A DNA stretch of 64,000 nucleotides from Candidatus Eiseniibacteriota bacterium (GCA_005893225.1 VBOT01000053.1:3462-67461); one strand, 5' to 3'; positions 10,123 to 51,816 are shown, numbered from the stretch's first letter. Numbers and translations are program-made. Notes: a model not told the origin generated them from the sequence alone.

Positions 10123-10156
10123 GGGGCGAGGTGCGCCCCGGCCGGCCCGGAGCCGC

Positions 10157-11572: not shown

Positions 11573-11583
11573 GCGAGCGTGTC

Positions 11584-12357: not shown

Positions 12358-12914
12358 GCGCAGGAGAGCTTCGCAGCCCCGCGGCGCCCCTCCCCTCGCC
12401 CTACGACGACGGCGCGCTGCGCGACTTCTCGCTGCCGCGCCGCTACACGCTGGTCACGATCCCATTCAACGCCTTCCTCCACAACCTCACGACCGAGGAC
12501 CAGCTCGCCACGCTCTGCCGCTGTCGCGACCACCTGGCCCCGGGAGGGGCCCTGGTGGTGCATGCTTCGCTCTTCACCAGCCCGGAGATCCTTTCCTCGA
12601 CGAACACTCCGATTCTCGAGCTCGAGACCGTCGATCCCGGGACCGGGCACACGCTCCAGCACTACGACACCCGCTCGATCGACCCGGTGAACCAGATCCA
12701 GCACTCGACCAACGAGGTCCGCGAGCTCGACCGTGATGGGCCCCTGGTGTCGTCGCGCCGGACCGAGACCGCGGTGCGCTGGGTCAACCGGGCCGAGTTC
12801 GAGCTGCTGCTGCGGGTTGCGGGGTTCACCCGCTGGGAGCTCTACGGCGGCTTCCGGCGCGAGCCGCTCGACGTCGAGCACCAGCAGATGGTGGCCTTCG
12901 CGTGGAAGGATTAA
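12345..12914 (+). pseudogene. 5'-truncated paralog of the upstream methyltransferase (lacks the SAM-binding motifs I and II)
   Basis: About 55% identical to the C-terminal 180 aa of the 11584..12357 product (DFSLPRRYTLVTIPFNAFLHNLTTEDQLATL vs DFTMPRRYALITIPFRTFLHNLTAEDQIATL). Starts 13 nt inside the upstream gene. No GxGxG motif. Confidence 0.6.
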
Positions 12915-12966
12915 GGGTGGCGATCCGCCTGCGCCGCTTGCGCGCACCGGACGAGGAGGTCCGCTC

Positions 12967-13935
12967 GTGACCGGCTCGTTCCCGCGCGCCTCGTCCGGAG
13001 CCCAGCCGGACCGCGGGCTCGCCGGCGCGCGCGGCGCGGGAGGGGCGCGGCAGTTCCTCGACCCGGCCGTGGTGGCGCGCCTCGCGCACCTCGACGTGCG
13101 GGCCCGCCTGGTGGTGGAGGGCTTCATCGCGGGGATGCATCGCAGCCCGTTCCACGGCTTCAGCATCGAGTTCGCGGAGCACCGCCCCTACATGCCCGGC
13201 GACCCGCTCAAGAACCTGGACTGGAAGGTGTGGGCGCGGAGCGATCGCTACCTGGTGAAGCAGTACACCGAGGAGACCAACCTGCGCTGCCACCTGCTGC
13301 TCGACCTCTCGGGCTCGATGGGCTTCCGGTCCGAGCGGGCCTCGATGAGCAAGCTCGAGTACGCGCAGTCGCTGGCGGCGGCGCTCGCCTACCTGATGCT
13401 CCACCAGCAGGACGCGGTGGGCACGCTCCTGTTCGCCGACCGGCCGCTGGCCTACGTCCCGGCGCGCGCGGTCCGCTCGCACCTGGACGTCCTGCTCAAG
13501 ACGCTCGGCACGCTCGTGCCGCAGGGACGCACGCGCCTCGGCCCCGCGCTCCACGAGCTGGCCGAGCGCATCAAGCGGCGCGGGCTCATCATCCTGTGCT
13601 CCGACCTCATGGACCTGCCCGCCGAGGTGCTCTCGGGGCTCCAGCACTTCCGCCACCGGCACCACGAGGTGATCGTGTTCCACATCCTCGACCCGGACGA
13701 GACCGACTTCCCCTACACCGACACCGCGACTTTCGTGGACATGGAGAGCGGCGAGCGGCTCACCACCGAGCCCTGGGAGATCGCGCGGCGCTACCGCGAG
13801 CGGCTCGCGGCCTGGAGCGAGCAGTACCAGCGCAACTGCCGCGAGCGGCGCATCGACTACGTGCGGCTCGACACGCGCACGCCGTTCGACCGGGCCCTGC
13901 TCGCCTATCTCGAGAAGCGCGCGAGGCTCCTGTGA
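12967..13935 (+). CDS. DUF58 domain protein (MoxR-associated, vWA-like)
   Basis: RSPFHGFSIEFAEHRPYMPGDPLKNLDWKVWARSDRYLVKQYTEE is the DUF58 hallmark. GTG 12967 is preceded by AGGAGG. Confidence 0.85.
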   Translation: MTGSFPRASSGAQPDRGLAGARGAGGARQFLDPAVVARLAHLDVRARLVVEGFIAGMHRSPFHGFSIEFAEHRPYMPGDPLKNLDWKVWARSDRYLVKQYTEETNLRCHLLLDLSGSMGFRSERASMSKLEYAQSLAAALAYLMLHQQDAVGTLLFADRPLAYVPARAVRSHLDVLLKTLGTLVPQGRTRLGPALHELAERIKRRGLIILCSDLMDLPAEVLSGLQHFRHRHHEVIVFHILDPDETDFPYTDTATFVDMESGERLTTEPWEIARRYRERLAAWSEQYQRNCRERRIDYVRLDTRTPFDRALLAYLEKRARLL

Positions 13936-14555
13936 CGCTGCGGATCGCCGCGGCGGCAGCCTTGATCCTGGGCCTGACGACGCTGCTGCTCTATCTCCAC
14001 GGGATCGGCAAGGGGCCGTGGGCCGACCCGGCCGCGCGCAACCTGCGCCGGATGAAGGAACGCGCCTGGCCCCCGGCCGCCACCGAGCCCTTCACCATCG
14101 CCGCCATGACGGCGCTGCCGCGGTGGGCGGGGCTGTCCGTGTACGCCCCCATCGAGCGGCGCGGCGTGGCGGTCGAGGGCTACGTCCAGCGCATGGTGCG
14201 CGCCGGGGACGACGACATCCACCTGGACTTCGCCCCCGAGACCCGGGGGTCCGAAGGCCCGCTCGTCCCTTTCCTCTCCGCCGAGATCACACCGGCATGG
14301 CACCGTGGCTCGACGGCCTGGCGCTACCCGCGCCTCGTCGAGGCGCTGCGGCCGATCTTCGGCGGCGTCACGCAGTGGGACCAGCCGCCGCGCCGCGTGC
14401 GCCTGAGCGGCTGGCTGATGTACGACTATCCGTTCGAGGGAAGCCCCCCGAAGGGCGGGTTCCCCAGGCACGTCTCGTTCTGGGAGATCCACCCGGTCAC
14501 GGGAGTGGAGCTCTGGGATGACTCGCTCGCCAGGTTCGTGGAGTACCCGCGTTGA
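13932..14555 (+). CDS. hypothetical membrane-anchored protein inside the MoxR/BatA operon
   Basis: GTG start overlaps the DUF58 stop. N-terminal TM helix AAAALILGLTTLLLYL. No recognisable family. Confidence 0.5.
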   Translation: MTLRIAAAAALILGLTTLLLYLHGIGKGPWADPAARNLRRMKERAWPPAATEPFTIAAMTALPRWAGLSVYAPIERRGVAVEGYVQRMVRAGDDDIHLDFAPETRGSEGPLVPFLSAEITPAWHRGSTAWRYPRLVEALRPIFGGVTQWDQPPRRVRLSGWLMYDYPFEGSPPKGGFPRHVSFWEIHPVTGVELWDDSLARFVEYPR

Positions 14556-16666
14556 GCTTTCTCAACCCGCTGTTCCTCTTCGGGCTCCTCGCGGCCGCGA
14601 TCCCGGTCATCATCCATCTCTTCACCCGCCGCCGGCCGCGCGAGGTGCCCTTCCCCTCGCTCGAGTTCCTCTCGGAGGTGAACCAGAGCGAGATCCGCCG
14701 GCTCAGGCTCAAGCAATGGCTGTTGCTGCTGCTGCGCACGCTGGCGATCGTGGCGATCGCGCTGGCGATCGCGCGCCCGGCGGTGAGAGGCAGCGTGGGG
14801 CCGAGGAGCGGAGCGGCGACCACCGTGGTGGTGCTGGTCGACCAGAGCGGAAGCATGGGGGCGGCGGCGGTGGGAAGCACCGGGGGCCCAGCGAGCGCCG
14901 GCCCGGCGAGCGCGAGTGGGACCCTGCTCGGCGAGGCGAAGCGCGCGATCGAGGACGTGCTCTCCACCCTCGGCCCCGCGGACGAGCTCCTGCTCGTCCC
15001 CTACGATCGGGCGCCGCACCCGGCCACGCCGCGGCCGAGCTCGGACCTGGGCCGCCTGCGGGCTGCGGTCCAGGGCCTCGCCCCCACGGCCTACACCACC
15101 GATCATCGCCAGGCGCTCGAGTTCGCCGCCAGCGCGCTGGCCCATTCGAACGCGCTGAACCGCGAGCTGTTCTGGGTCTCCGATTTCCAGGCCGCGGGGT
15201 TCGCGGGCCCCGGAGACGCCGGGCCTTCCGCCGCGATCGTCGCGCCGGCCGGGCCGTGGCAGCAGTCGCGGGCCTACCTGATCCCGATCGCCCCGCGCAG
15301 TCCCGCCAACGTGGGGCTCTCCGACGCCGCGCTCTCGCCGGCCGAGACCGAGATCGGGCTCTCGGTGACGGCCTCGAGCTACGGCGCGCGTCCCGGGGAC
15401 CTGGCGGTCGAGGTGCGCGACCTCGAGGGCCAGGCCGAGCTGGGGCGCGGATTCCTGAACCTGCCCGAGCGCGGCGAAGCCACGACGCTGCTGCCGCTCG
15501 CGCGCCTCCCCAGGGAGGGCGGCGCGGTGGTGGTTCCCGACGATGCGCTCGGGCTCGACAACCGCCGCGTGTTCGCGGCCGGGCGCGCCGGGACACTCAA
15601 GGTGCTGGTGCGCGAGGACGGGCCGCCCTCCGCGCTGCGGTTGGCGCTCGAGGCCGGCTCCCCGGCCTCCGGGATCGCGGTCGAGACGGTCGGCGGGGCC
15701 GAGCTGGCCCAGGCCGCGCGCGACGCCGATGCCGTCGTGCTCAACGATCTCGAGCGCCTCGGAGCGGCCGAGCTCCAGGCCGTGCTCGACTTCTATCGCG
15801 GCGGTGGCGGCGTGCTCGTGGTGCTCGGGGACCGCGCCGATCCCGGGTTCTGGAACTCCGCCGTGCTCGGCGAGCTCGGCGCCGGACGGCTTGGAGGGCT
15901 GGACCAGGCGCCCACCGGGAGCGCGTGGCGCCTGATGCGCGCCACCGCCGGACACCCGGTGCTGACGGGATTCCCGGCCCGGCCCGGCGAGCCGCTCTCG
16001 ACCGCGCGCTTCACGGCGATCCGCGCCTTCGCGCCGGCTCCCGGCACCCGCACCTTGCTCGAGTTCGACCGCGCCCACCCGGCGCTCCTTGAAGCGCCGC
16101 GCGCATTGATCTTCGCGGCCTCCCTCGAGCCGAGCCGCTCGGACTTCCCGGTGAGCGGCGCCTACCTGCCGCTGCTCCATCAGGCGGTCAAGGTGCTCGG
16201 CCGCGGCACCGCCGCCTCGTCGCTCGTTCCCGGCGACCGCTACAGCTTCCCGGCCGGGACCGGAGCCTGGCGCATCGAGGACGAGCAGGGCCGCGAGATC
16301 CCCTCCGAGCTCGCGGCCGAGCGCGGCGCCACGCGGCTGCGCTCGGATCCGCTCGAGCACCCCGGCCTCTACCGCGTGATGCAGGGCGGCACGATGCGCA
16401 GCACCTTCGCCGTCAACCCGGATCCGCGAGAGTCCGACCTCACCCCGGTTCCCGAGCGCGCGATGGTCAGGGCGTTCCCTCCGGGCCGGGCCCAGGTGGT
16501 GCGCCCGGGCGAGAACCTGGCGCGGCGGGTGCGCGAGGCGCGCTACGGCCGCGAGCTATGGAGTTGGTTCATCGTGATGGCCCTGGTGCTGCTCGCGGCC
16601 GAGACCGTGATCGGGCGGTGGGGGCTCGGCAGTCGCGTGCCCGAAGCGGTGGGGGCGGGTGCGTAG
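14552..16666 (+). CDS. BatA-like protein (N-terminal double-TM aerotolerance domain plus vWA-like region)
   Basis: MSFLNPLFLFGLLAAAIPVIIHLF...LRTLAIVAIALAIARP is the BatA N-terminal motif. Start overlaps the upstream stop. Confidence 0.8.
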   Translation: MSFLNPLFLFGLLAAAIPVIIHLFTRRRPREVPFPSLEFLSEVNQSEIRRLRLKQWLLLLLRTLAIVAIALAIARPAVRGSVGPRSGAATTVVVLVDQSGSMGAAAVGSTGGPASAGPASASGTLLGEAKRAIEDVLSTLGPADELLLVPYDRAPHPATPRPSSDLGRLRAAVQGLAPTAYTTDHRQALEFAASALAHSNALNRELFWVSDFQAAGFAGPGDAGPSAAIVAPAGPWQQSRAYLIPIAPRSPANVGLSDAALSPAETEIGLSVTASSYGARPGDLAVEVRDLEGQAELGRGFLNLPERGEATTLLPLARLPREGGAVVVPDDALGLDNRRVFAAGRAGTLKVLVREDGPPSALRLALEAGSPASGIAVETVGGAELAQAARDADAVVLNDLERLGAAELQAVLDFYRGGGGVLVVLGDRADPGFWNSAVLGELGAGRLGGLDQAPTGSAWRLMRATAGHPVLTGFPARPGEPLSTARFTAIRAFAPAPGTRTLLEFDRAHPALLEAPRALIFAASLEPSRSDFPVSGAYLPLLHQAVKVLGRGTAASSLVPGDRYSFPAGTGAWRIEDEQGREIPSELAAERGATRLRSDPLEHPGLYRVMQGGTMRSTFAVNPDPRESDLTPVPERAMVRAFPPGRAQVVRPGENLARRVREARYGRELWSWFIVMALVLLAAETVIGRWGLGSRVPEAVGAGA

Positions 16667-17533: not shown

Positions 17534-17803
17534 AGTTGCAGCCGACGCCTCACTCAGTCGATCACGACCGCCGCAGCCACCACTAACCTCAGTTGAGCAG
17601 AAAATCGAAGCGCATCGAACTTCGTGATTGAAAAAAGGCCTCTCGTTGTGGTTTGAAAGGGCTGTTGCGAGCAGTTCCTCTCACCCCAACGAAAGGCCAT
17701 GAACGATGAGGCGAACAGCGATGTATCAAGCAGAATGAGCCGCTCAGGAACCGAGGGGGCGCGCCTCTCCGAGTCGGTCGACGGATCGAGGCGATCGAGG
17801 ACG

Positions 17804-18553
17804 TTAGAAGGCGGCGAGCAACGCCTGCACGCGGCAGAAGGCCGCGACGGCATCGGGCCCGCGTGCCAGCGCCAGGATCCAGCGCGGTCCGATGTTGAAC
17901 CAATGGAGCCGGAGCTTCTTGAGCTGATCGGCGTGCCATTCCACCCCCAACAACAGGAGCTTGAAGGCTTGCGCCAGGTTGTAGGCGATGCCCGCGATCA
18001 GGAGCCACGCCCAGTTGGCGAGGAAGCGCTGCGAGGGCAGATGGGCGGCGCCCAGTCCGTTTTTGAACTCCTCGAGGTAGTTCTCCATCCCGCCGCGGGT
18101 CAGGTGGTAGCGGATCAGGCTACTGCCCGCTCCGACGAGGTTGGTGATGACGGCGGTATAGAAGTACTCGCCGATGACGCGCTGCTCCTTCTCGTACCAC
18201 GGCGTGCGCTTGACCAGCAGCCGGTGCTCGCGCGACCAGCCGTTGGGCTGATAGCGGAACTCGGTCCACTCGGCTTCGTTCTCCCACGGATAGGCGGACC
18301 AGACGCTCTCGGGAAGCGCGTCAATCGCGGGCCGCAGACGTTCGGTCAGCTTGGCGCTGATGCTAAAGCCGAGCCCGCGGGTGACGCACAGCTGCTCCAC
18401 CTGGCGGTGCATAGAAGCCGGCGTCCATCCGGAGGCGCACCCGTCGCTCGGCCGGAGCCGCCTTGAGTACTTGCCGTAGGAACGGCACCGCGCCGTCGCT
18501 CGAGGTGCGCTGGCCGGCGCGCAGTCGCGCTCCCAGCAGCACCCGCTCCTCAT
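17804..18553 (-). pseudogene. transposase C-terminal part (frameshifted)
   Basis: Continues the same protein in another frame, overlapping the N-terminal ORF by ~190 nt (...YFYTAVITNLVG...). Confidence 0.55.
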
Positions 18554-34171: not shown

Positions 34172-35305
34172 GTGCCCATTCCCGCGCTCTCCGACCTCCT
34201 GGGACAGCCCGAGGCCTCCGCGTTCCTGAGCGGCGTCGTCGCGCGCGCCCGGTACGCCAACGCCTACCTCTTTCAGGGTCCCGCGGGGGTCGGCAAGGGG
34301 ACCGCCGCCCTGGCCTTCGCGCGCGCCGTCCTGTGCGACCGGAGCGGGGGAGCGCCTCCGTGCGGGCGCTGTCCCGCCTGCCTCAAGAGCGCCCGCCTCC
34401 AGCACCCGGATCTCAAGTTCCTGTTCCCGGTCTCCGGCGAGGAGAAAGATCTGGACGAGACCATCGCCGCCACGCTCGCGGCGTGGCGCGAGGACCCGCT
34501 CTTCGTGTTCTCCTACGAGAAGGCGGCCTCGATCCGTCTCTCGATCACCCGCGACCTGCTCCGCGAGCTTGCGTTCAAGCCGTTCGAGGCCCAGCGCCGC
34601 GTGGTGGTCGTGCGGGACGCCGACCGCATGCGCGAGGACCAGTACTCGGCGATGCTCAAGGCGATCGAGGAGCCGGGCGCCTCCAGCCTCTGGGTGCTCA
34701 CCACCGCGCGGCCCTCGCGCCTGCCGGCGACCATCCGCTCACGCTGCCAGAAGGTGCGCTTCGCCCCGCTGCCCGAGGACCTGATCGCGGACTTCCTCTC
34801 CGAGCGGGCCGGCATCACCGCGCGCCCCGCGCGCATGCTCGCGGCGCTTTCCGGAGGCTCGCTGGCCCGCGCGCTGACGCTGCGCGAGCAGGATCCGCTG
34901 GCGCTGCGCAACCAGGCGCTCGCCCTGCTCGAGCCCGCGCTGCGAGGGGACCCGGCCACTCTGTGGAAGACGCTCGGCCGCCTCGGTCGCCCCGGACGCG
35001 AGACGATCCGCCGCCTCGTCGAGTTCCACCAGCTCTGGCTGCGCGACATCCTGCGCGCCCGCTACGGCGCGCCGCGCGAGTCGCTGGTCCATCGCGACCG
35101 GGAGGAGGAGATCCGCAAGCAGGCGCAGACACTCGATGCCACCGAGGTCCGGCGCCGGCTGATGGTGCTGGAGGAAGTCCTGCGCGCGATGGAGAGCAAC
35201 GTCGCGGTGGAGGTCGCGCTGTTCTCGGCGCTGACCCGGCTGGCGGACCGGTCGCTCGAGACCGACTCCTGGCCCCCTCATCCGACCGATCGGTGGGCCT
35301 ACTGA
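34172..35305 (+). CDS. holB: DNA polymerase III subunit delta prime
   Basis: AYLFQGPAGVGKGTAALAFARAVLC, zinc module CGRCPAC, and SRCQKVRF sensor motif. Confidence 0.85.
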   Translation: MPIPALSDLLGQPEASAFLSGVVARARYANAYLFQGPAGVGKGTAALAFARAVLCDRSGGAPPCGRCPACLKSARLQHPDLKFLFPVSGEEKDLDETIAATLAAWREDPLFVFSYEKAASIRLSITRDLLRELAFKPFEAQRRVVVVRDADRMREDQYSAMLKAIEEPGASSLWVLTTARPSRLPATIRSRCQKVRFAPLPEDLIADFLSERAGITARPARMLAALSGGSLARALTLREQDPLALRNQALALLEPALRGDPATLWKTLGRLGRPGRETIRRLVEFHQLWLRDILRARYGAPRESLVHRDREEEIRKQAQTLDATEVRRRLMVLEEVLRAMESNVAVEVALFSALTRLADRSLETDSWPPHPTDRWAY

Positions 35306-35361
35306 AGACGCCGTCGCGCCGCGGCGTCCCGTGGCGCGGCCGGCCGACCCCGCCGCCGCCG

Positions 35362-35583
35362 TCATTCCTCCCGGGCGTAGAGCTCGACGTAGCCGCAGCG
35401 CTCGCAGCGGTACGCCGTGATCGGGTGCCGCGCCTTGCCGCGCGTCTTGGTTCGGCCCCAGAACGAGCGCTCCGGGGCCCCCTCGATCCAGGACGCCACC
35501 TTTCCGCTGTCGTGGTGAGATCGATCGAAGAGGAATCCCCGCTGCATGCTGGCCGAGCATCGCGCGCACTTCGGCTGATTCAT
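35362..35583 (-). CDS. small Zn-ribbon protein (two CxxC pairs; DUF2082-like predicted nucleic-acid-binding)
   Basis: 73 aa: MNQPKCARCS...YRCERCGYVELYAREE. Only the 3' end of the reported 445-aa ORF appears real. Confidence 0.6.
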   Translation of the reverse strand: MNQPKCARCSASMQRGFLFDRSHHDSGKVASWIEGAPERSFWGRTKTRGKARHPITAYRCERCGYVELYAREE

Positions 35584-35648
35584 GGTCCGCCCCTTTCCTC
35601 CTGCCTCACCCACCCGAGCGCCTGGCACGCTCGCGGCGGGCGAGCGTA

Positions 35649-38600
35649 CTACTTCACGAGGAGGAAGCGTCCCGACGTTGCCCGGCCCCCGGCCAGGACG
35701 CGATAGAAGTAGACCCCGCTCCCGAGGGGCGCTCCGGACTCGCCCGAGCCGTCCAGGGCCACCTGGTGCTCGCCCGGAAGGATGCTCGGGAGGTCCAGGA
35801 GCGTGCGGACTCTTCGTCCGCGAAGGTCGAAGACCTCGATCCGCACCGGCCCGGCCCGCGACACCGAGAAATGGAGCTCGCCGTCCCGCCGGAGCGGATT
35901 CGGCGCCACCCAGGATGCCGGATGTGGAACCGGCGAGGCTTCTGGGCCACTCGCGGCCGCGGAGCGGCTCTCGGCCGCCGAGGCCGCCAGCTCCAGGTGG
36001 AGGATCGCCGCCCCACTCGCGGCGCCGTCGTACGAGACGGCGGTCCGCTTCCCGGACCCGGTGATCAGCAGCGCCAGGGCATTGCCGCTCCGCCACCCCG
36101 GGCGCCCGACGATCTCCTGGATCACGGGCGAGAGATCGGGCGTACGCTGCTCGGTGCCCGCCTGCCCGGCCGTCCAGGGCAGGATCGCCGGCCACGACAC
36201 CGCGGCCTGGGTGCCCGTCCCGAGCCTCGCCGTCAGGCTCCCGCTCCCGGTCGTGAATGCCGCGGCGTTGTCCGCCGCCTCCCCGCGAATCGAAAGGGTC
36301 GTCGCCTCGGACTGCGACTCGTCCGCCTGGAACTGCACGTAGGCCCCCGTCACGCTCGACCCTGCCGGGATCGAGAGTCCCGCGAACCGCAGTCCCACGA
36401 CCTTCTGCGGCGTGCCGTCGATCATCATCTCGAGATCGCTGCTGGTGAGGCTGACGCTCCCGTCGGAATGCTCCTCGGCGTCGTCGGGCCCGGCGGCGAT
36501 CCGAGTCTCGAGCGAGGCCCCGCCTCCTGACGATGGGATGTCGTGGCCGACGATCGCCACCGTGTCGCGCGACACGAGCTGCCCGTCGCTGGCCCGGAGC
36601 TCCAGCAGGTAGGTTCCCGCCACGCTGAACGACGCGCGCGTATCCACCGCGGCGGCGTTCGCGAACGTGACCGTCCCGGGGCCGCTGGCCTTGCTCCATG
36701 TTGTTACGAGGGAAGGCGGCTGCGGCAGCCCGTCGTCGGACACGGTTCCGTCCAGCGGCGCGTCGTTCGGCAGCGTGATGACCTGGTCCGGTCCCGCGTT
36801 CACGACCGGGGCCTGGTTAGTCACGGACCCCGACGTGTACTCCACGTGGAGCAGCGCAGCCGCGCCGGGGATCCCATCGAACGACACCGCGGTCCGGTGA
36901 CCCGACCCGGTGACGAGCAGGGCCAGGGCGTTGCCGCTCCGCCACCCGGCGCGCCCGACGATCTCGCGGATCACGGGCGAGAGGTCCGGCGTGCGCTGAT
37001 CGCTCCCCACCTGCCCGGCCGTCCAGGGCAGGAGCCCCGGCCAGCTCACCGCCGCCTGGGTGCCCGCCCCGAGCCTCGCCGTCAGGCTTCCGCTCGAGGT
37101 CGTGAACGCCGCGGCGTTGTCCGCCGCCTCGCCTCGGATCGAAAGCGTCGTCGCCTCGGACTGCGACTCGTCCGCCTGGAACTGCACGTAGGCTCGCGTC
37201 ACGCTCGAGCCCGCCGGGATCGAAACGCCCGTGAAGCGCAGGCCGACCACCTTCTGAGGAGTTCCGTCGATCATCATCTCGAGGTCGCCGCTCGTGAGGT
37301 TGACGCTCCCGTCGGAGCGCTCCTCGGCGTCGTCAGGCCCGGCGGCGATCCGGGTATCGATCGTCCCGGAGCCCGGAGGCCTCGTGTCCACGCAAGCGGT
37401 GTTCGACGGGGCGCCCTCGAGCCCGTTCGTCCCCACCGCCGTGGCCTCGTAGCACAGCTGGGCCTGCGGCGGGCTCGAGTCGGTGAAGCCGAGACTGGTG
37501 ACCAGGCTCGAGTTGAGCTTCTGGAACGAGCCGCCGTCCGCCTGCCGGTAGACGTCGTACCCGCTCACCGTGCCGGAGGGCGGGCCCCACGACAGGTCGA
37601 CCCGCGTCGGAGAAGAGCGCAGGGTCGCGATCAGGCTCTGGGGCGGTCCCGGCGCCGATCCGCCGGAGCCCGGCGAGCCGAACCCGTTCCACAGCGCCTT
37701 GCTGCCGTTCTCCGCCACGGCGATGAGGCTCCCCCTGGGAAGGATCTGTTTCATCCCGCTCACGTTGTTCATGTCCTTGGTGGACGAGATGAAGATCGTC
37801 TGGCCGCCGAAGCTGAGCGCCTCGATGTCGGCGACTCGATACTCGATGCGTTCGGGCGAGACTCCCCAGCGCGTGTAGAGGATGTAGACCTTGGAGTCCT
37901 GCTCAGCGACCATGATGATGCCCCGCGTCCCGGTCCCCGGGCCAATGACGTCGGTCTTAGTTGTCCAGGTGCCGTTCGTGGCGCGCCGGTGGACGCGCAT
38001 ATGATCGACGGCATCCTTGGTGATGGCGTAGACGCGACCCTGGGAATCGAAGGCCAGGTTCACGTGATCGTCGGCGTGGCCCGAGCCGTGGTCCACGACC
38101 TCCTCCGCGGCCCAGGTGCCGGGAGGATCGCTGTCGCGGTGCACCCGGAACCCGAACTCGTCGCGCTTCTGGTCGGACCAGAACACCCCGACCTTGTCGC
38201 CTCCGAAAGCCACGATCGAGGAGATGTCGTCGGCGTCGATTCCGGAGCGCAGGACGATGGAGCTCGACCACGAGCGGTGGTCGGCGGTGGTGGTGTAGTA
38301 GACGTTGACGTTGCCCCCGCCTTCGGCCGTCGCCCAGAGCCGGCCCGAGGAATCCTCCTCGAGCACCATGGTCTCCGAGCCGCTCGGGTTGGGGACCGTC
38401 ACGGGGAACCCCGAGGCCAGGACCCAGGAACGGGTGCCCGCCGCGTAGGTGTACTGGTAGAGCCGCACCGTGCCCCCGTAGACGAGCACGAAGAGATGCG
38501 TACCGTCCCACTTGACGTCCGCGTTCCCCGAGCTCTGGAGCACCGCATTCGCGAACTGCCCGCGTTGCCAGGCGCCTCCGACCAGCTGGTAGAAGGCCAC

Positions 38601-38849
38601 GCCGTCGGGACCCTGGAGCACGGCCCAGTAGAAACCGTCGTTGTAGAAGAGCTTGGACTGCGGCTTCTCCCCGGTGCTGGCCGCCACGGTGGAGAACATC
38701 TCGAATCCGACGTTCGCCGCCCCGGCGGGCGCGGGGCAGGCGAGGAGCGCCGCCGCCAGTCCGGCCATCACCCCGGCGGCCGCCACCGGCGATCCGGTGT
38801 CACGCATGGATGTATATCCCAGGTGTGGAGCAGGTGGCTGACGGAGCAC
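35649..38849 (-). CDS. large secreted beta-propeller/FN3 protein with two near-identical ~190-aa internal repeats and Por/T9SS-type C-terminal domain
   Basis: Signal peptide. FN3-like PPQSLIATLRSSPTRVDLSWGPPSGTVSGYDVYRQ. Duplicated TRIAAGPDDAEE...RTAVS.DG modules. C-terminal GVYFYRVLAGGRATSGRFLLVK. Confidence 0.8.
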   Translation of the reverse strand: MLRQPPAPHLGYTSMRDTGSPVAAAGVMAGLAAALLACPAPAGAANVGFEMFSTVAASTGEKPQSKLFYNDGFYWAVLQGPDGVAFYQLVGGAWQRGQFANAVLQSSGNADVKWDGTHLFVLVYGGTVRLYQYTYAAGTRSWVLASGFPVTVPNPSGSETMVLEEDSSGRLWATAEGGGNVNVYYTTTADHRSWSSSIVLRSGIDADDISSIVAFGGDKVGVFWSDQKRDEFGFRVHRDSDPPGTWAAEEVVDHGSGHADDHVNLAFDSQGRVYAITKDAVDHMRVHRRATNGTWTTKTDVIGPGTGTRGIIMVAEQDSKVYILYTRWGVSPERIEYRVADIEALSFGGQTIFISSTKDMNNVSGMKQILPRGSLIAVAENGSKALWNGFGSPGSGGSAPGPPQSLIATLRSSPTRVDLSWGPPSGTVSGYDVYRQADGGSFQKLNSSLVTSLGFTDSSPPQAQLCYEATAVGTNGLEGAPSNTACVDTRPPGSGTIDTRIAAGPDDAEERSDGSVNLTSGDLEMMIDGTPQKVVGLRFTGVSIPAGSSVTRAYVQFQADESQSEATTLSIRGEAADNAAAFTTSSGSLTARLGAGTQAAVSWPGLLPWTAGQVGSDQRTPDLSPVIREIVGRAGWRSGNALALLVTGSGHRTAVSFDGIPGAAALLHVEYTSGSVTNQAPVVNAGPDQVITLPNDAPLDGTVSDDGLPQPPSLVTTWSKASGPGTVTFANAAAVDTRASFSVAGTYLLELRASDGQLVSRDTVAIVGHDIPSSGGGASLETRIAAGPDDAEEHSDGSVSLTSSDLEMMIDGTPQKVVGLRFAGLSIPAGSSVTGAYVQFQADESQSEATTLSIRGEAADNAAAFTTGSGSLTARLGTGTQAAVSWPAILPWTAGQAGTEQRTPDLSPVIQEIVGRPGWRSGNALALLITGSGKRTAVSYDGAASGAAILHLELAASAAESRSAAASGPEASPVPHPASWVAPNPLRRDGELHFSVSRAGPVRIEVFDLRGRRVRTLLDLPSILPGEHQVALDGSGESGAPLGSGVYFYRVLAGGRATSGRFLLVK
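35940..37352. repeat. two ~840-nt tandem DNA repeats (~90% identical) inside the giant secreted-protein gene
   Basis: For example 36192-36375 vs 37035-37215 are nearly identical on the plus strand. Confidence 0.75.
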
Positions 38850-38999
38850 CGCGCTCCCGTTGGTCGATTTGCGCGCCGCTCCGCCCTGCGACCTCGCTGC
38901 TTCCAGACACTCCGACGGATCCGTACACGCGAACCCGAGCAGCCGATTCGCGCTCCGGATGGCTCGCGGCCGCCGGACCGTCGCTCTCCAGTCAGCGCG

Positions 39000-39110
39000 C
39001 GTCTCCGCTATTCTAGCATCTTTTCGATTCGCTTCGAAGGTTCATATCTACTGTTACATGCTGGTATCAATCATTATATCAATGATATTACGGAGCCGGG
39101 GTCGCGCTCC
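39000..39110 (-). promoter_or_regulatory. AT-rich island with direct TATCAAT repeats and an ATCATT/AATGAT inverted repeat; a perfect TATAAT on the minus strand; candidate promoter/operator upstream of the giant gene
   Basis: GC drops sharply. tatcaatcattatatcaatgatatta sits at 39065-39090. Confidence 0.35.
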
Positions 39111-39195
39111 CGGGCGCGCCGGGGACGGTCCCGCACGGCAGCCGGGCCTCGGTCCTCGCCGGGGCAGGCTGCCCGGCGTGTCCCGGAGGGGTTTC

Positions 39196-39924
39196 TCAAT
39201 GATCGTAGTTCAGAGGCGACGTGTCGATCGTGACCTTGTTGCGTGGATCCGGAACGTGGATCCGCACCTCCAGCACGTTGGGGTATCGGTTCGCCCCCTC
39301 GGCGAAGGTTCCCGCCGCATTGATCTCGTTGTGCACGATGTAGTCGCCCTCGGGCACCCCGGTGATGTCGATCCACTGCCCGCTCAGCTGCTTGAAGTAC
39401 CAGTCCCCCCATCCCGAGCTGATGCCCTGGCTGCGGCAGGTGTAGCCGTGGCTGTCGTTGTTGGAGTACTTGAGCAGGTCCTCGAGGCAGAAGGCCTGCT
39501 TGTGTCCTTGCGCGGCGATGCTCCGGTCGAGCTTGAGGAGTTGGTAGTTCGAGAAGCCGCGGATGTGGTAGTGCCGGTGGCACGGCGAGAACTCGAACCA
39601 CCGGGCGTAGGGGTTGCTGGGGTCGGTCGGATCGCCGACCACCAGGTCGCCGTCGCCCATGTTCATGACCACGGTGTCGAAGCGCAGCAGGCGCCGGTAG
39701 CCGGCGCCGCCCACCGAGCCCTCGACGAGCTCGCAGTCCCCCTGCTGGAACAGCCGGTCCACGATCTCCATCTGCGACTCGAATCGCTTGGGGTCGATCG
39801 TGAGGTCGGGTCGCCCGTGGTTGTTGTAGGCGGGGAAGTCACCGGAAACCGCGGTTCGCTGCGCCAGAGCCAGAGCCGGGAGCAGCGCGGCGATCGTGAC
39901 GGCAAGCACCAGTGTGCGTTTCAT
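39196..39924 (-). CDS. lysyl oxidase (LOX) family copper amine oxidase homologue, secreted
   Basis: Signal peptide. Aligns to the human LOX catalytic domain: WFEFSPCHRHYHIRGF (Cu site WEWHSCHQHYH); GHKQAFCLED (LTQ Lys, GHKASFCLED); GDWY...GQWIDITGVPEGDYIV (LTQ Tyr and CQWIDITDVKPGNYIL). Confidence 0.8.
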   Translation of the reverse strand: MKRTLVLAVTIAALLPALALAQRTAVSGDFPAYNNHGRPDLTIDPKRFESQMEIVDRLFQQGDCELVEGSVGGAGYRRLLRFDTVVMNMGDGDLVVGDPTDPSNPYARWFEFSPCHRHYHIRGFSNYQLLKLDRSIAAQGHKQAFCLEDLLKYSNNDSHGYTCRSQGISSGWGDWYFKQLSGQWIDITGVPEGDYIVHNEINAAGTFAEGANRYPNVLEVRIHVPDPRNKVTIDTSPLNYDH

Positions 39925-40274
39925 GGCTAACCCCCTGGGGTGGTGAGACGGGAAGCTGGACCGCGCCGTGGGCAGACTGTGCCCTCGACCCGCTCGCCGA
40001 CGGGGCTCCGGCCGGGCAGCGCGCTTCGAGCACCCGCCAAGCTTACACGAGACGCCGGGTTCACGAACGGCCCCGGCTGGGCTATGCTTGGGGGAGTCAA
40101 GATTCCCGTCGGCCAGCCGATGGGTTGTTCATAGCCGGCCTGTCCCGCGTGCCCCTCGGCTCCGGGCGCCTCGCTCTCCGCAGGTGGGCGCGGTCCAGCC
40201 GGATCGACACATCCGATTCGCTCGGCTCCCCAGCCGGCTGAAGGGGCGGGCTTCCGCCCCATAGAGGTCGTGAC

Positions 40275-41186
40275 ATGTCCGACGTGGTGCAGGTCTCTCT
40301 GCGCGGTTCCCGCAAGGAATTCTTCCTCAATTCACGCAACCTGTGGCTCACCCTCCACGATCCCGTCATCGTCCAGTCCGAGCACGGCGAGGCGATCGGC
40401 AAGGTGGCGCTCAAGGGTTACCTGGTGGAGCTCAAGCGTCCGGGGAACGTGACGCGCGAGATCATCCGCAAGGCGACCGAGGAGGACCTGGACCAGGAGG
40501 ACCACAACAGCGCCAGGGAAAAGGAAGCGTTCGAGCATTGCCTCGAGCGGATCGAGCTGCGTGAGCTCAAGATGGACCTGCGGGAGGTGGAGGTGGCCTT
40601 CAGCGGTCACCGGATCACCTTCTACTTCACCGCCGAGCACCGGGTCGACTTCCGCGAGCTGGTCAAGGACCTGGCGGCCCAGTTCCAGACCCGGATCGAG
40701 CTGCGCCAGATCGGCCAGCGCGACCAGGCCAAGCGGCTGGACGGCTGCGGCCCGTGCGGCCGGGCCTTCTGCTGCTCCACCTGGCTCAAGAGCTTCCATC
40801 CCGTCACCCTCAAGATGGCCCGCGAGCAGCAGCTCTCCCTGAACCCGACCAAGATCTCAGGGGCGTGCGGTCGTCTGATGTGCTGCCTGGCCTACGAGCT
40901 GGCCCAGTACCGGGACAGCGCCGAGAAGCTCCCGCCGATGGGCACCGAGCTGCGCACCGGCAAGGGCGTCTGCACGGTGACGCGCACCGAGCTCCACCAG
41001 GAGGCGGTGTGGGTGCGCGACGACGAGGGCGCCGAGCATCGCATCGCCTACGCCGACCTGCCGCCCGGTCCTTACCACAAGTGCGGCGACTGCACCTGCG
41101 GCAAGCGGCCCCGGGCAGCCGATGACGAGCCCCCGACCGACGGCGAGACGCCTCCGGAAGACTGGGCGGATCCGCCCGGACACTAG
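40275..41186 (+). CDS. ricT: PSP1 C-terminal domain protein RicT/YaaT
   Basis: GCGPCGRAFCCSTWL and GACGRLMCCLAYE cysteine motifs of the PSP1/YaaT family. Confidence 0.85.
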   Translation: MSDVVQVSLRGSRKEFFLNSRNLWLTLHDPVIVQSEHGEAIGKVALKGYLVELKRPGNVTREIIRKATEEDLDQEDHNSAREKEAFEHCLERIELRELKMDLREVEVAFSGHRITFYFTAEHRVDFRELVKDLAAQFQTRIELRQIGQRDQAKRLDGCGPCGRAFCCSTWLKSFHPVTLKMAREQQLSLNPTKISGACGRLMCCLAYELAQYRDSAEKLPPMGTELRTGKGVCTVTRTELHQEAVWVRDDEGAEHRIAYADLPPGPYHKCGDCTCGKRPRAADDEPPTDGETPPEDWADPPGH

Positions 41187-41339
41187 GGCTTCAGAAGAAG
41201 CGGGTTACGCGCCAGAAACAACCCGGCCTGAAGTCGATCTTGAAGTCCGAGCTTCTCGAGAATGTGCCTGACGTGCTTCTTGACCGTCGGTTCTCGGACC
41301 CCCAGCAAGGATGCGATCTCCTTGTTCGAACGGTCACGG
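41183..41339 (-). pseudogene. orphan LuxR/GerE-type HTH fragment (~50 codons); remnant of a response-regulator/LuxR gene
   Basis: Minus-strand frame encodes ...SLVPGRDRSNKEIASLLGVREPTVKKHVRHILEKLGLQDRLQAGLFLARNPLLLKP*. No receiver domain or long ORF upstream. Its stop shares CTAG with the ricT stop. Confidence 0.45.
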
Positions 41340-41556
41340 CCGGGGACCAAAGAATTAGCGCTCGGGCGCTGCGCGTGAGATAGGCGGCCGTGGCGGCGGT
41401 CGCCAGCCGTGCTGTGTGCCGTCCGCCACCCGTTTCGACCTCCAGGCGCTGGTGCAGCCGCGCTTCGAGGCGACCGGTTCCTCTCGCCCCGCGAGCGAGG
41501 CGATTCCGAGCCGACAGTTCCTGGCCCGCCTCGACCATCGCGGCTAGAGTGTTCTC

Positions 41557-48751: not shown

Positions 48752-49546
48752 GTGATCGACACCCACTGCCACCTCTGCGACAAGCGCTTCGACAAGGACC
48801 GCGAGCAGGTGCTCGATCGCGCTTTCGAGGCCGGCGTGACCCACCTGATCGAAATCGCGTACTCGCCGGCGATCGTCCCGCGGGCTCACGCGCTGGCCTC
48901 CCGGCACCCCAACCTCTTCCTCTGCCTGGGAGTCCACCCGAGCGAGGCGGCCAAGGTGCCGGACGACTACCTCGCCACCCTGCGCGACCACGCGGGCCAC
49001 GCGCGCGTCGTGGCGATCGGCGAGACCGGCCTCGACTTCTACAGGGACCACGCGCCCCGACCCGACCAGGAGCGGTGGTTCCGCGCCCAACTCGGGCTGG
49101 CTGACGCGATGGGCCTGCCGGTGGTGATCCACCAGCGGAGCGCGCTCGAGGAGACGCTCGCCATCCTCGAGGAGCTGCGGCCGGCGGCCGGTGGGGTCTT
49201 GCACTGCTTCGACGACGGCCCCGAGGCCGTCGCGCGCGCCCGGGGCATCGGGTTCAAGCTCGGCCTGGGCGGCTGCCTCACCTACGGGCACGCGGCGCTG
49301 GACCAGGCCGTGCGAGAGGCACCCGGCGACATGCTGGTGCTCGAGACCGACTCGCCCTACCTCGAGCCCGAGCCGCGCTCGCTCCGCCGCAACGAGCCGG
49401 CGCTGCTCGGGCGCGTCGTCGCGCGCCTGTGCGAGCTCAAGGGCTGGACCAAAGCCGAGGCCGACCGGGTCACCACGGCGAACGCCCGCGAGCTCTTTCG
49501 CCTGCCGATCGGCCAGGGCAGCCTCCCCGCGAGCGGAAACGCCTAG
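48752..49546 (+). CDS. tatD: TatD-family metal-dependent hydrolase
   Basis: IDTHCHL start, VAIGETGLDFYRD, ETDSPYL motifs. Sits in the conserved metG-tatD arrangement. Confidence 0.85.
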   Translation: MIDTHCHLCDKRFDKDREQVLDRAFEAGVTHLIEIAYSPAIVPRAHALASRHPNLFLCLGVHPSEAAKVPDDYLATLRDHAGHARVVAIGETGLDFYRDHAPRPDQERWFRAQLGLADAMGLPVVIHQRSALEETLAILEELRPAAGGVLHCFDDGPEAVARARGIGFKLGLGGCLTYGHAALDQAVREAPGDMLVLETDSPYLEPEPRSLRRNEPALLGRVVARLCELKGWTKAEADRVTTANARELFRLPIGQGSLPASGNA

Positions 49547-50889: not shown

Positions 50890-51816
50890 GTGTCCCCCTC
50901 GCGACGCGTTCCCAACCCGGCGAGGGGCGGGCGAGCCTCGAGCTACGTCCGCGAGCGGGCGGCGCTCGAGGGCGGCGGGCTCTCGCGCCTGAAGCGGGTG
51001 CTCGCCGAGCGCGGGCTGGCCCCGCGCCGGCGATTCGGACAGAACTTCCTGATTCGCGAGGACCTGGCCGATCGCATCGTCGACCATTGCCACCTGAGCC
51101 AGGACGACGTGGCGGTCGAGATCGGTCCCGGGGCGGGTGCCCTGACCTCGCGGCTCGCCAGCCGGGTGCGGCGGCTGATCGCGGTGGAGAAGGACACCGG
51201 GCTGGCCGCACTGCTGCGCGAGGAGCTCGCCGAGCTCCCCGGAGTCGAGATCGTCGAGGGTGACTTTCTCGCCTTCGATCTCCCGGCGGCCGCGGCGGCC
51301 CACGGTGTCCCGCGGCTGGCCGTGGCGGGCAACATTCCCTACAACATCACCACGCCGGTGCTCGAGCGCATCTTCGACCAACGGGCGGCGGTGCGGGTCG
51401 CAGTGCTCCTGGTGCAGAAGGAATATGCGGAGCGGCTGGCCGCCGCCGCCGGCACGCCCGAGTACGGGTCGCTCACGCTGTTCGCCCGGTACCACGCGCT
51501 GTTGGAGCCGCTCATGACGGTCCGCGCCGCGGCGTTCTGGCCGCGCCCCGAGGTCGACAGCATGCTGGTGCGCTTCCTCCTGCGCGAGCGCCCCCCGGTC
51601 GAGGTGCCGAGCGAGGCGCTGCTGTTCCGCATCATCCGCGGCTCGTTCCAGATGCGCCGCAAGCAGCTCATGAACACGCTCGAGGAGACCCTCGGCGTCG
51701 GCAAGCAGGATGTGGCGCGCCTCTGCCGCGCGGCGGGCATCGACCCGCGGCGCCGCGGCGAGACGCTCACGCTGGACGAGTTCGCGAAGCTGGCGCGGGC
51801 CGCGGCGCCCGGCTAG
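50890..51816 (+). CDS. rsmA: 16S rRNA (adenine1518/1519-N6)-dimethyltransferase
   Basis: FGQNFL, VEIGPGAGALT and NIPYNITTP motifs. True start probably ~20 codons before FGQNFL. Confidence 0.85.
   Translation: MSPSRRVPNPARGGRASSYVRERAALEGGGLSRLKRVLAERGLAPRRRFGQNFLIREDLADRIVDHCHLSQDDVAVEIGPGAGALTSRLASRVRRLIAVEKDTGLAALLREELAELPGVEIVEGDFLAFDLPAAAAAHGVPRLAVAGNIPYNITTPVLERIFDQRAAVRVAVLLVQKEYAERLAAAAGTPEYGSLTLFARYHALLEPLMTVRAAAFWPRPEVDSMLVRFLLRERPPVEVPSEALLFRIIRGSFQMRRKQLMNTLEETLGVGKQDVARLCRAAGIDPRRRGETLTLDEFAKLARAAAPG

Follow-up and report, generated by a model that had tools for sequence, protein, structure and literature searches.

The window analysed here is a 64,000-nucleotide stretch of DNA from an uncultured soil bacterium of the Candidatus Eisenbacteria. 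Within this window, holB and ricT are separated by 4,969 bp carrying three minus-strand genes, which encode a zinc ribbon, a large modular protein and a lysyl oxidase (Table 1), so that the block of about 5 kb reported between the two genes in the first-pass annotation is present as described. In most Eisenbacteria loci holB is syntenic, with FtsX-M23 upstream, while RicT is 70-82% identical to its Eisenbacteria orthologues, no relatives being found with RicT identities between 82% and 100%; homologues of tatD and ksgA lie downstream of ricT within the window. From its sequence, the GC-rich hairpin between the convergent holB and zinc-ribbon genes is probably a bidirectional terminator.

Table 1 Features of the holB-ricT interval and its flanking genes (window coordinates)
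Feature	Position	Strand	Evidence or remark
holB (DNA polymerase III delta')	34172-35305	+	PF13177, E 1e-38; left flank of variable slot
GC-rich hairpin GACGCCG-tcgcgc-CGGCGTC	35307-35326		read from sequence
Zinc-ribbon gene, DUF6487-like, 73 aa	35362-35583	-	PF20097, 23.9 bits (cut-off 24)
Large gene, whole	35649-38849	-	1,066 aa from GTG 38849; 1,052 aa from ATG 38807
C-terminal sorting domain (FlgD_ig / T9SS type A tail)	35649-35945	-	PF13860, TIGR04183
CBM-like beta-sandwich repeat (~180 aa), copy 2	35946-36518	-	direct repeat, 849-bp spacing
PKD (K319L-like) domain between the two repeats	36552-36797	-	PF22352, E 1.8e-7, residues 685-766
CBM-like beta-sandwich repeat, copy 1	36795-37367	-	AlphaFold2 pLDDT 94.7; Foldseek
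Fibronectin type III domain	37368-37649	-	PF00041, E 2.9e-6
N-terminal beta-propeller domain	37650-38732	-	AlphaFold2 pLDDT 95.0, pTM 0.93
AT-rich island	38992-39091	-	GC 0.40, lowest 100-bp window of the 64 kb (mean 0.707, sd 0.053)
Lysyl oxidase, secreted, single-domain, 242 aa	39196-39924	-	PF01186, E 3.2e-29
Spacer upstream of divergent lysyl oxidase gene	39925-40213		variable between strains
Two-hairpin element + ATAGAGG	40214-40268	+	directly upstream of ricT; right edge of variable slot
ricT (PSP1 domain)	40275-41186	+	PF04468, E 2.8e-31; right flank of variable slot

In short contigs from this region the lysyl oxidase gene can be a chimera-like mosaic, as in L172, where the N-terminal 80 residues are 95% identical to another lysyl oxidase lineage and the remainder matches the window at 100%; the arrangement might then be a product of assembly or binning, a chimeric contig that wrongly links the holB/ricT neighbourhood with a locus for secreted proteins. 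Against this stand three independent same-species contigs from different samples, of which L081 carries FtsX-M23-holB-zinc ribbon-large gene-lysyl oxidase, and L084 and L085 carry large gene-lysyl oxidase-ricT-kinase, covering both junctions at about 99-100% identity to the window. Their agreement confirms that the gene arrangement is not an assembly artefact, an explanation to which we attach almost no credence. The lysyl oxidase and large genes are adjacent in all same-species contigs.

The large protein is ordered as a signal peptide, beta-propeller, FN3 domain, CBM-like sandwich, PKD domain, CBM-like sandwich and T9SS-type sorting domain, and its start is more likely to be ATG 38807, also chosen by the gene call on a same-species contig, than the upstream GTG. 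The propeller and FN3 calls of the first-pass annotation were correct (Table 1). For the propeller, which probably has seven blades in the predicted model, no Pfam model scores above its own cut-off; Foldseek places it near rhamnose-glucuronate lyase 7esk (E 1.5e-9), Photorhabdus propeller lectins and sialidases (TM about 0.6), and a set of Asp, His, Lys and Trp columns is invariant across 63 homologues, pointing either to an enzyme or to a defined binding pocket. The two copies of the CBM-like repeat share 84% DNA and 77% protein identity; a Pfam search with this repeat gave no match at E <= 5, while 133 homologues were found, some labelled Acidobacteria, Deltaproteobacteria, Planctomycetota or Chloroflexota, and the top Foldseek match is the chondroitin-sulfate-binding CBM 8wab (E 4.7e-6, TM 0.59), with the alginate-binding CBM 7vbo also matched. 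The C-terminal domain passes the cut-offs of PF13860 FlgD_ig (E 1.4e-6, 28.6-29.7 bits against 27) and TIGR04183 (27.7 bits against 23), with Pfam Por_Secre_tail remaining under threshold (16.4 bits against 27). No T9SS machinery genes (PorU/V, SprA and others) were present among the ORFs scanned in the 64-kb window, which holds a second T9SS-type modular protein at 826-4440.

From these models, the most likely role of the large protein is to bind or process glycans, either at the cell surface or after secretion by a putative route, and its domains resemble those that act on glycans rather than a collagen- or elastin-like matrix substrate. The label of giant repeat adhesin does not hold for a protein of 1,052-1,066 residues with two copies of one domain of about 180 aa plus a single FN3 and a single PKD domain, and we rejected it since the protein lacks both the many tandem units and the very large size of such adhesins. 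At 71% identity and 97% coverage, the large gene's nearest homologue lies at another locus of an Eisenbacteria MAG, with neither a lysyl oxidase nor a zinc-ribbon gene alongside, and the holB-ricT gap of that same MAG contains a kinase fragment.

The zinc-ribbon gene follows the stop of the large gene at a distance of 65 bp and encodes four cysteines in two CxxC pairs (residues 6-9 and 60-63). The zinc ribbon noticed at first is real, but its assignment to DUF2082 is not, since no such match occurs among its Pfam hits at E <= 0.01 and the nearest family is DUF6487 (PF20097), matched over profile positions 1-60 of 67 with a score just under the gathering cut-off. Its homologues comprise 1,603 representative clusters of proteins of about 75 aa (E <= 1e-3), with a best identity of 48-58%. 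The product would be a small cytoplasmic protein, and its gene may share a transcript with the large gene upstream.

The lysyl oxidase homologue was identified rightly, with an intact copper site and intact cofactor residues. It scores 102.5 bits with PF01186 (gathering cut-off 20.4) and aligns to human LOXL2 (5ZE3) with an E value of 2.5e-22, conserving CHRHYH, GHK and DWY. The copper-binding core, CHRHYH in both proteins, is the His-x-His-x-His motif that defines lysyl oxidases (PMC4448552), and the residues of the lysyl-tyrosyl-quinone cofactor, K320 and Y355 in human LOX (PMC4448552), are present in GHKQAFCLED (GHKASFCLED in LOXL2) and DWY (DMY in LOXL2). The enzyme would be a copper amine oxidase converting primary amines, either peptidyl lysine or small amines, to aldehydes with release of H2O2 and ammonia. 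Among 1,129 homologues, the closest are 70-89% identical; orthologues at 73-77% identity occupy five unrelated genomic contexts, none of which contains a large-gene homologue apart from the generic C-terminal tail. The family is widespread and well conserved in Eisenbacteria, without a fixed genomic address.

The AT-rich island had been described as the upstream boundary of the block. It is real and extreme in composition, but it is no boundary, as it lies inside the block between the lysyl oxidase stop and the large-gene start, which are separated by a spacer of 346-388 bp. It contains two copies of ATTGATA, 12 bp apart, a motif found otherwise only upstream of the other FlgD_ig-tailed gene, and the large-gene orthologue in L082 is preceded by an equivalent AT-rich stretch (9840-9950). 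The island belongs to the large gene's own upstream region, a putative promoter or regulatory stretch that would drive this gene, and the three genes would form at least two transcription units.

These features bear on whether the three genes were selected as a functional unit, in which the lysyl oxidase would cross-link a matrix through lysines of the large protein or of a bound partner. Both proteins carry N-terminal export signals, as judged by eye from the translations, and polypeptides that contain lysine are in vitro substrates of lysyl oxidases from prokaryotes (PMC6452851); the two genes, moreover, share a strand and are kept adjacent in all same-species contigs, so a functional link within the species is conceivable. 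Nevertheless, neither the 71% large-gene orthologue nor the five lysyl oxidase contexts preserve the linkage, the spacer and the separate AT-rich upstream region divide the two genes, and the folds of the large protein resemble carbohydrate-binding or carbohydrate-active ones, not collagen- or elastin-like substrates. We therefore regard such a unit as unlikely.

To judge whether the block is foreign, we consider its composition and the signatures of mobility. GC3 is 0.90 in the lysyl oxidase gene as well as in the large gene, and their synonymous-codon likelihoods are inside the window's range, so the GC and codon-usage check proposed at the outset gives no sign of a foreign block. The overall GC of the lysyl oxidase gene, 0.646, is the lowest of the local genes because of GC2, that is, amino-acid composition. 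A Pfam search with the three genes found no recombinase (integrase or transposase), Rfam gives no tRNA match, and the single ARAGORN tRNA call was rejected, lying in the coding sequence of the large gene. Flanking repeats of the block are at chance level and none is convincing, no phage similarity was matched, and the only plasmid match is 166 bp long at 71% identity. A classical genomic island or integrative element was rejected for want of an integrase, a tRNA/att target, flanking repeats or deviant composition.

An island acquired from another phylum via a mobile element that has since decayed would account for the interruption of a conserved housekeeping pair by a block missing from all relatives and for the low GC of the lysyl oxidase gene, and horizontal transfer between prokaryotes is thought to be part of lysyl oxidase phylogeny (PMC4448552). 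Such an origin is very unlikely, given the native codon use and missing mobility signatures described above, and given that the best homologues of the lysyl oxidase and large gene include proteins annotated as Eisenbacteria or encoded on Eisenbacteria MAG contigs, at 71-89% identity, similar to that of RicT.

FtsX-M23-HolB-RicT is the conserved gene order in Eisenbacteria species representatives, and the statement that holB and ricT are usually neighbours was borne out: with gaps ranging from 26 to 6,233 bp, 26 of the 55 Eisenbacteria species stay at <= 500 bp, and the gap is <= 586 bp in all nine outgroup loci, labelled Bacteroidetes, Rhodothermales, Ignavibacteriales, Latescibacterota, Fibrobacteraceae or just uncultured bacterium. 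Across 87 pooled genome and metagenome loci, 42 gaps are <= 500 bp, 20 are 500-2,000 bp and 25 are > 2,000 bp; gap sizes were taken from the ends of tblastn segments, with ORFs filtered simply by GC3, rather than from curated annotation. The junctions are interrupted at rates of 0/37 for FtsX-M23, 12/40 for M23-HolB and 29/54 for HolB-RicT. Among the gap occupants in relatives, a hybrid histidine kinase occurs in 14 species, an OMP beta-barrel in 6 and FlgD_ig proteins in 3; others include GT20 and TreT (trehalose synthases), a TonB receptor, OmpA, a molybdopterin oxidoreductase, DUF5671 and DUF4394. They are patchy on the HolB+RicT tree, on which L005, among the window's nearest neighbours, has a gap of 26 bp.

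The three window genes occur in the holB-ricT gap at none of about 140 related loci, and not one of them was found in the gap of the 55 species-level loci, of the non-conspecific metagenome loci with upstream sequence present, or of the 9 outgroup loci. Nor are they ever linked elsewhere: their nearest homologues lie at other Eisenbacterial loci, none beside a homologue of another. Adjacency is the conserved state, no relative holds the window genes in the gap, and the insertion proposed in the first-pass annotation survives the comparison that could have overturned it. Alternatively, the three genes may have stood in the gap of the Eisenbacteria ancestor and been lost or replaced in every other sampled lineage; with the gap occupied in 29 of 54 species, an occupied slot could indeed be old, but its occupants in relatives are unrelated to the three genes and dozens of independent losses would be required, making this ancestral arrangement a highly improbable one. 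The hybrid kinase is so widespread that the slot may have been ancestrally occupied in part of the phylum, in which case the window block would be a replacement and not an insertion into an empty junction.

On the ricT side of the slot, the spacer at 39925-40213 is 77-92% identical to that of the same-species contig L081, against about 99-100% elsewhere. The two-hairpin element that precedes ricT is conserved and shows covariation: the window site scores 24.3 bits with covariance model R1 (E 6e-4), which has 47 matches among 66 related loci and the window, with covariation in 12 of 14 pairs and 95.3% of cells paired.

Together, we consider it highly probable that the block is a real species-level filling of a repeatedly re-used holB-ricT slot in Candidatus Eisenbacteria, a patchwork of functionally unrelated genes that is neither a functional module nor a classical mobile island. 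Of the proposal that a matrix-type island was inserted in a housekeeping neighbourhood, the insertion stands, as adjacency is conserved and no relative has the genes; the matrix module is not supported, with the genes unlinked elsewhere, the large protein's domains pointing to glycans and a spacer between the lysyl oxidase and large genes. Judging by the missing mobility signatures, the genes probably came by ordinary chromosomal rearrangement or recombination among Eisenbacteria. They would have entered a permissive gap ahead of the structured leader of ricT and left that leader intact. The insertion would then represent ordinary genome turnover and no special matrix-building island.

Several known systems resemble parts of this locus. 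Like the prokaryotic single-domain lysyl oxidases (Grau-Bove et al. 2015, PMC4448552; HTU-LOX of Haloterrigena turkmenica, PMC6452851), the window enzyme consists of a LOX domain only, after an N-terminal hydrophobic signal, and has in common with them the copper site as well as the Lys and Tyr of the cofactor; another residue stands where the animal motif has its first histidine (H289), as reported for bacterial sequences (PMC4448552). HTU-LOX has been assayed as a recombinant enzyme (PMC6452851). At 242 aa the window enzyme is compact, and it comes from a very abundant soil-metagenome family. Eisenbacteria are absent from the five bacterial clades of the 2015 survey (PMC4448552). The large protein is like T9SS type A cargo of the FCB group in its N-terminal signal, its Ig-like/PKD/FN3 and carbohydrate-binding modules and its C-terminal sorting domain of about 80 aa, but differs in that Por_Secre_tail is sub-threshold and in that the propeller and the repeat have no above-threshold Pfam model. 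The fold of its N-terminal 360 residues matches Fusarium rhamnose-glucuronate lyase 7esk, Photorhabdus PLL/PHL lectins and sialidases (Foldseek E 1e-9 to 1e-7, TM 0.6-0.65), although sequence identity is just 12-16%. The CBMs 8wab and 7vbo share the beta-sandwich fold of the repeat at 15-16% identity and moderate TM, with no family profile match.

In Bacillus, as in the window, tatD and ksgA lie downstream of ricT. The Bacillus subtilis order is holB-yaaT(ricT)-yabA, with ricT directly after holB, and STRING groups yaaT with holB, tmk and yabA (PMC3814617). Here, in contrast, 5 kb separate the two genes, and about half of Eisenbacteria have other genes between them. Chromosomal integration hotspots, also described as genomic islets at conserved core-gene junctions, are a general concept, and the holB-ricT slot, while differing from them in having no integrase, tRNA or repeat signature and in genes that look native to the phylum, follows the same pattern of varied accessory genes at one core junction with the adjoining junctions closed.

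In this Eisenbacteria contig, whose overall GC content in the window is 0.707, a 4,969-bp interval separates holB from ricT and holds three genes, all on the minus strand, which encode a small zinc-ribbon protein, a large secreted modular protein and a lysyl oxidase. From left to right, the spacers across the interval measure 56, 65, 346-388 and 350 bp.

Positions of the holB-ricT interval and of other features in the window
Feature	Position	Strand	Details
Lowest-GC stretch, first of two	490-589		
Second FlgD_ig-tailed protein	826-4440		Phosphoesterase, PKD, CBM_4_9
MoxR AAA+ ATPase, DUF58 and BatA/VWA genes	9121-16666	+	Amino-acid permease between
AT-rich patch	17582-17681		
Truncated DDE transposase	17804-18553	-	PF13701, profile positions 230-401 of 435
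holB	34172-35305	+	PF13177, E 1e-38
Zinc-ribbon gene	35362-35583	-	73 aa, CxxC...CxxC
Large gene	35649-38849	-	1,066 aa from GTG; ATG at 38807 in a same-species contig's gene call
Repeat of ~180 aa	36795-37367	-	No Pfam match at E <= 5
ARAGORN tRNA-Ala call	36861-36952	-	92 nt
Beta-propeller region	37650-38732	-	~360 aa; no Pfam model passes threshold
AT-rich island, second of the two lowest-GC stretches	38992-39091		GC 0.40, lowest 100-bp window in 64 kb
Lysyl oxidase	39196-39924	-	242 aa; PF01186, E 3.2e-29
Spacer upstream of lysyl oxidase	39925-40213		
Two-hairpin element	40214-40268	+	24.3 bits
ricT	40275-41186	+	PSP1, E 2.8e-31
LuxR-fragment ORF	41183-41350	-	55 aa; HTH part only of LuxR/GerE domain (profile 18-53 of 57)
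TatD homologue	48752-49546	+	
KsgA/RsmA homologue	50890-51816	+	

A search with RicT recovered 69 loci at 69-82% identity, the majority labelled Candidatus Eisenbacteria and the remainder with other or no taxon labels, and when the window's proteins were mapped onto them by tblastn, FtsX-M23-HolB-RicT emerged as the common order. The holB-ricT gap spans 26 to 6,233 bp among the 55 species-level loci holding both genes and is at most 500 bp in 26 of them; in all nine outgroup loci, labelled Bacteroidetes, Rhodothermales, Ignavibacteriales, Latescibacterota, Fibrobacteraceae or only uncultured bacterium, it is at most 586 bp. Adding 80 metagenome loci brought the measurable gaps to 87 (42 of at most 500 bp, 20 of 500-2,000 bp and 25 above 2,000 bp), and the zinc ribbon, the large gene and the lysyl oxidase occur in none of them; matches to the large gene within the relatives' loci are confined to its generic C-terminal tail. 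Because no relative's gap holds the three genes and the adjacency is conserved, these data bear out the first-pass annotation in reading the block as an insertion between two normally neighbouring genes. That the window instead retains an ancestral arrangement is highly improbable, given that the three genes are found in none of the relatives' gaps.

An error of assembly is hardly credible as the source of this order, which recurs at 98-100% protein identity in three same-species contigs from separate samples. One from an ENA soil assembly (L081) reads FtsX-M23-holB-zinc ribbon-large gene-lysyl oxidase, and two from JGI soil metagenomes (L084 and L085) read large gene-lysyl oxidase-ricT-LuxR fragment-kinase. 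Conspecific contigs vary at strain level in the spacer upstream of the lysyl oxidase, which is 77-92% identical to positions 1-531 of L081, against ~99-100% for the rest. When metagenomes were scanned for closer relatives with which to date the insertion, every contig returned was either conspecific (RicT 100%) or from a relative at 82% or less.

In relatives, gaps above 500 bp are filled by unrelated genes, namely a hybrid kinase of HAMP-PAS-HisKA-HATPase-REC architecture in 14 species, an OMP beta-barrel in 6, FlgD_ig-tailed proteins in 3, trehalose-6-phosphate synthase with TreT, a TonB-dependent receptor, OmpA, a molybdopterin oxidoreductase, DUF5671 and DUF4394. Gap states are patchy over a HolB+RicT neighbour-joining tree, on which one of the window's nearest neighbours (locus L005) has a 26-bp gap. 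By junction, interruptions number 0/37 for FtsX-M23, 12/40 for M23-HolB and 29/54 for HolB-RicT. Since the contents of the slot vary and HolB-RicT is the junction most often interrupted, the window's insertion is a single case of recurrent turnover: ordinary exchange of accessory genes, all members of known families, at a permissive core junction. Genes that are neighbours from Firmicutes to the sampled FCB-group relatives thus flank what is now the most permissive junction of their neighbourhood here.

The M23-holB interruptions, present in 12 of 40 Eisenbacteria species (loci L007, L008, L009, L019, L025, L037, L038, L051 and others), are 0.5-3.4 kb long. On the far side of ricT, the LuxR-fragment ORF, whose stop and that of ricT overlap by 4 bp, is probably the remnant of a regulator gene and hints at past rearrangement there too.

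The composition of the block, which the first-pass annotation had offered as a check on its origin, gave no sign of foreign DNA. GC3 is 0.90 in the lysyl oxidase and large genes alike, the lower total GC of the former being due to GC2, and their synonymous-codon log-likelihoods (-0.71 and -0.85, respectively) are native, other window genes having values of -0.63 to -1.15. Acquisition as a foreign genomic island is very unlikely in view of this native usage, of best homologues that include Eisenbacteria genes, and of the block itself: searches for an integrase, a genuine tRNA gene and convincing flanking repeats found none, no phage match was obtained and plasmid similarity was limited to a 166-bp, 71% match. 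Outside the species, the large gene's best homologue is P0003, which is 71% identical over 97% of its length and lies on an Eisenbacteria MAG beside glutamate synthase, a rhomboid protease and a transposase-type HTH; the holB-ricT gap of that MAG (L020) is filled by a kinase fragment. The parsimonious reading is that the block arose from native Eisenbacteria genes that were relocated or exchanged. An ARAGORN tRNA-Ala call, considered as an integration target, is almost certainly a false positive, as it falls within the coding sequence of a large-gene repeat and has no Rfam tRNA match. The sole mobile-element trace seen in the window is the truncated DDE transposase, which lies ~17 kb upstream of the block, does not adjoin it and is accompanied by its own AT-rich patch.

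The AT-rich island noticed in the first-pass annotation exists, as the GC minimum of the 64 kb, but it sits inside the block, between the lysyl oxidase and the large gene, and so cannot serve as the edge it was taken for. A comparable AT-rich stretch also lies ahead of the large-gene orthologue in L082 (9840-9950), a locus unrelated to this one; the island therefore belongs to the large gene and implies for it a transcription unit separate from that of the lysyl oxidase. Each of the window's two FlgD_ig-tailed genes for modular secreted proteins has one of the two lowest-GC 100-bp stretches upstream of it. Three copies of the heptamer ATTGATA are present in the window, all within these two islands and sense to the downstream gene, against 0.34 expected, an excess whose significance is overstated by local AT-richness; the heptamer may act as a promoter or regulator site shared by both genes. 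A promoter scan of the large gene gave no convincing sigma-70 site, only the AT-rich upstream region, and another sequence, ATTCGCAAT, common to two AT-rich regions, was set aside, as its frequency in the window is at chance level.

The proposal that the block is an island of extracellular-matrix functions is not supported. Nothing links the three genes beyond their adjacency in this species, and a functional module of this kind is quite unlikely given the separate transcription unit that the AT-rich island implies for the large gene. The orthologues of the lysyl oxidase weigh against it as well: five contexts (L164-169, L170, L173-174, L175-176 and L177-178) differ from one another and from the window, and none has holB, ricT or a true large-gene homologue nearby. 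Among 1,129 lysyl oxidase homologues the closest are 70-89% identical and ~242 aa long, several of them annotated Eisenbacteria. The compact secreted enzyme is thus a common, well-conserved Eisenbacteria gene with no fixed address, a distribution that bears on what bacterial lysyl oxidases do.

The window's enzyme matches the catalytic domain of human LOXL2 (5ZE3) at E 2.5e-22 and keeps the CHRHYH copper site, the cofactor lysine in GHK and the cofactor tyrosine in DWY, residues from which Grau-Bove et al. predict catalytic competence (PMC4448552). A fourth, animal-specific histidine is replaced, as the same authors report for bacterial sequences (PMC4448552). The only characterised prokaryotic member, HTU-LOX, is a copper-dependent amine oxidase that is sensitive to beta-aminopropionitrile and has a relaxed substrate range (PMC6452851), and by analogy the window's enzyme would be predicted to share its chemistry.

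Near two of the orthologues a ~1,017-aa PKD protein (L164 2656-5709, L173 3682-6738) is followed by a ~700-aa TPR protein. These PKD proteins were tested as homologues of the large gene and are not homologous; they may represent an older partner locus for that enzyme. Two short metagenome contigs (L171 1-1575 and L172 1-1153, compared with window 38400-40060) are lysyl oxidase mosaics: they agree with the window at ~100% identity over the large-gene start, the AT island and the lysyl oxidase gene's 3' half, while its 5' half and the sequence upstream belong to another lysyl oxidase lineage; the N-terminal 80 aa in L172 are 95% identical to P0203. They are better explained as chimeric assemblies, or as products of recombination between lysyl oxidase lineages, than as a second genomic site of the lysyl oxidase/large-gene pair.

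The large protein begins with a hydrophobic signal, followed by a beta-propeller (residues ~40-395; predicted structure with pLDDT 95 and pTM 0.93), an FN3 domain, two ~180-aa repeats flanking a PKD domain, and a C-terminal T9SS type A/FlgD_ig sorting domain. The propeller's nearest structures, at TM about 0.6, are rhamnose-glucuronate lyase, Photorhabdus propeller lectins and sialidases; it forms the N-terminal part of many secreted multidomain proteins, whose sources carry several different taxon labels, and its homologues share invariant Asp, His, Lys and Trp columns. The ~180-aa repeat, with 133 homologues, has a predicted beta-sandwich fold (pLDDT 94.7), and modules that bind chondroitin sulfate or alginate are its closest structural matches. 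Rather than the giant adhesin first suggested, this is the layout of a predicted surface-exposed or secreted glycan-binding or glycan-processing protein. The same tail on a second protein of the window indicates that such proteins are routine in this genome. The propeller and the CBM-like sandwich represent two widespread extracellular domains for which no Pfam model passes threshold. The zinc ribbon is a borderline match to DUF6487 (23.9 bits, cut-off 24) and belongs to a family of 1,603 clusters of stand-alone ~75-aa proteins.

Whichever gene precedes ricT, the ~55 nt directly upstream of it are conserved across Eisenbacteria (the window and loci L001-L067). Of 125 unique ricT-upstream segments, 115 were predicted by RNAfold to form two or more hairpins, nearly all with the same two GC-rich stem-loops followed by ATAGAGG. 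RNAalifold returned no structure on a plain MAFFT alignment of 100 such segments, in which variable loops were misaligned. A covariance model seeded with 10 hand-checked sequences gave 47 matches at E <= 1e-3 across 66 related loci and the window (1.03 Mb), all just upstream of ricT, and none in 11 outgroup loci. In the model-fitted alignment, which is fitted to structure with matches chosen by score, pairing holds in 95.3% of cells, and compensatory changes are seen at 12 of the 14 pairs; none of 500 shuffles reached these values, and slid controls paired 24-53% of cells. G.U pairs outnumber A.C pairs 21 to 12, which weakly favours an RNA on the ricT sense strand. Rfam gave no match in the window at the gathering threshold. 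Hairpin 2 ends 1-2 bases before the ribosome-binding region, so ricT is transcribed through the element, and the element is kept where the upstream gene is divergent, as in the window; for these two reasons it is likely to be a ricT 5' leader and not the terminator of the upstream gene. It may be the most testable new item of this analysis.

A bolder reading, which we consider unlikely, would make the holB-ricT junction of Eisenbacteria a dedicated gene-capture site. The two-hairpin leader would then insulate ricT expression, or even join in recombination, while lineages repeatedly exchanged secreted, envelope and sensory genes without mobile-element machinery; the lysyl oxidase and the large gene would be one cargo, and in this species the oxidase would target the surface protein or a glycan-bound partner. 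Taken as ordinary turnover, the case is of modest importance overall: it presents a slot that, in an uncultured soil phylum, takes native genes without a mobile-element signature, and it calibrates synteny-break scans, as a break alone does not imply a foreign island.

Elsewhere in the window, the clustered MoxR, DUF58 and BatA/VWA genes resemble a Bat/aerotolerance-type cluster. Downstream of ricT, the neighbourhood can be compared with that of Bacillus, where the order is holB-yaaT...yabD(tatD)...ksgA. As in Bacillus, tatD and ksgA homologues follow ricT in the window; in the window, a Ser/Thr kinase-TPR gene and an ammonium transporter separate ricT from them.
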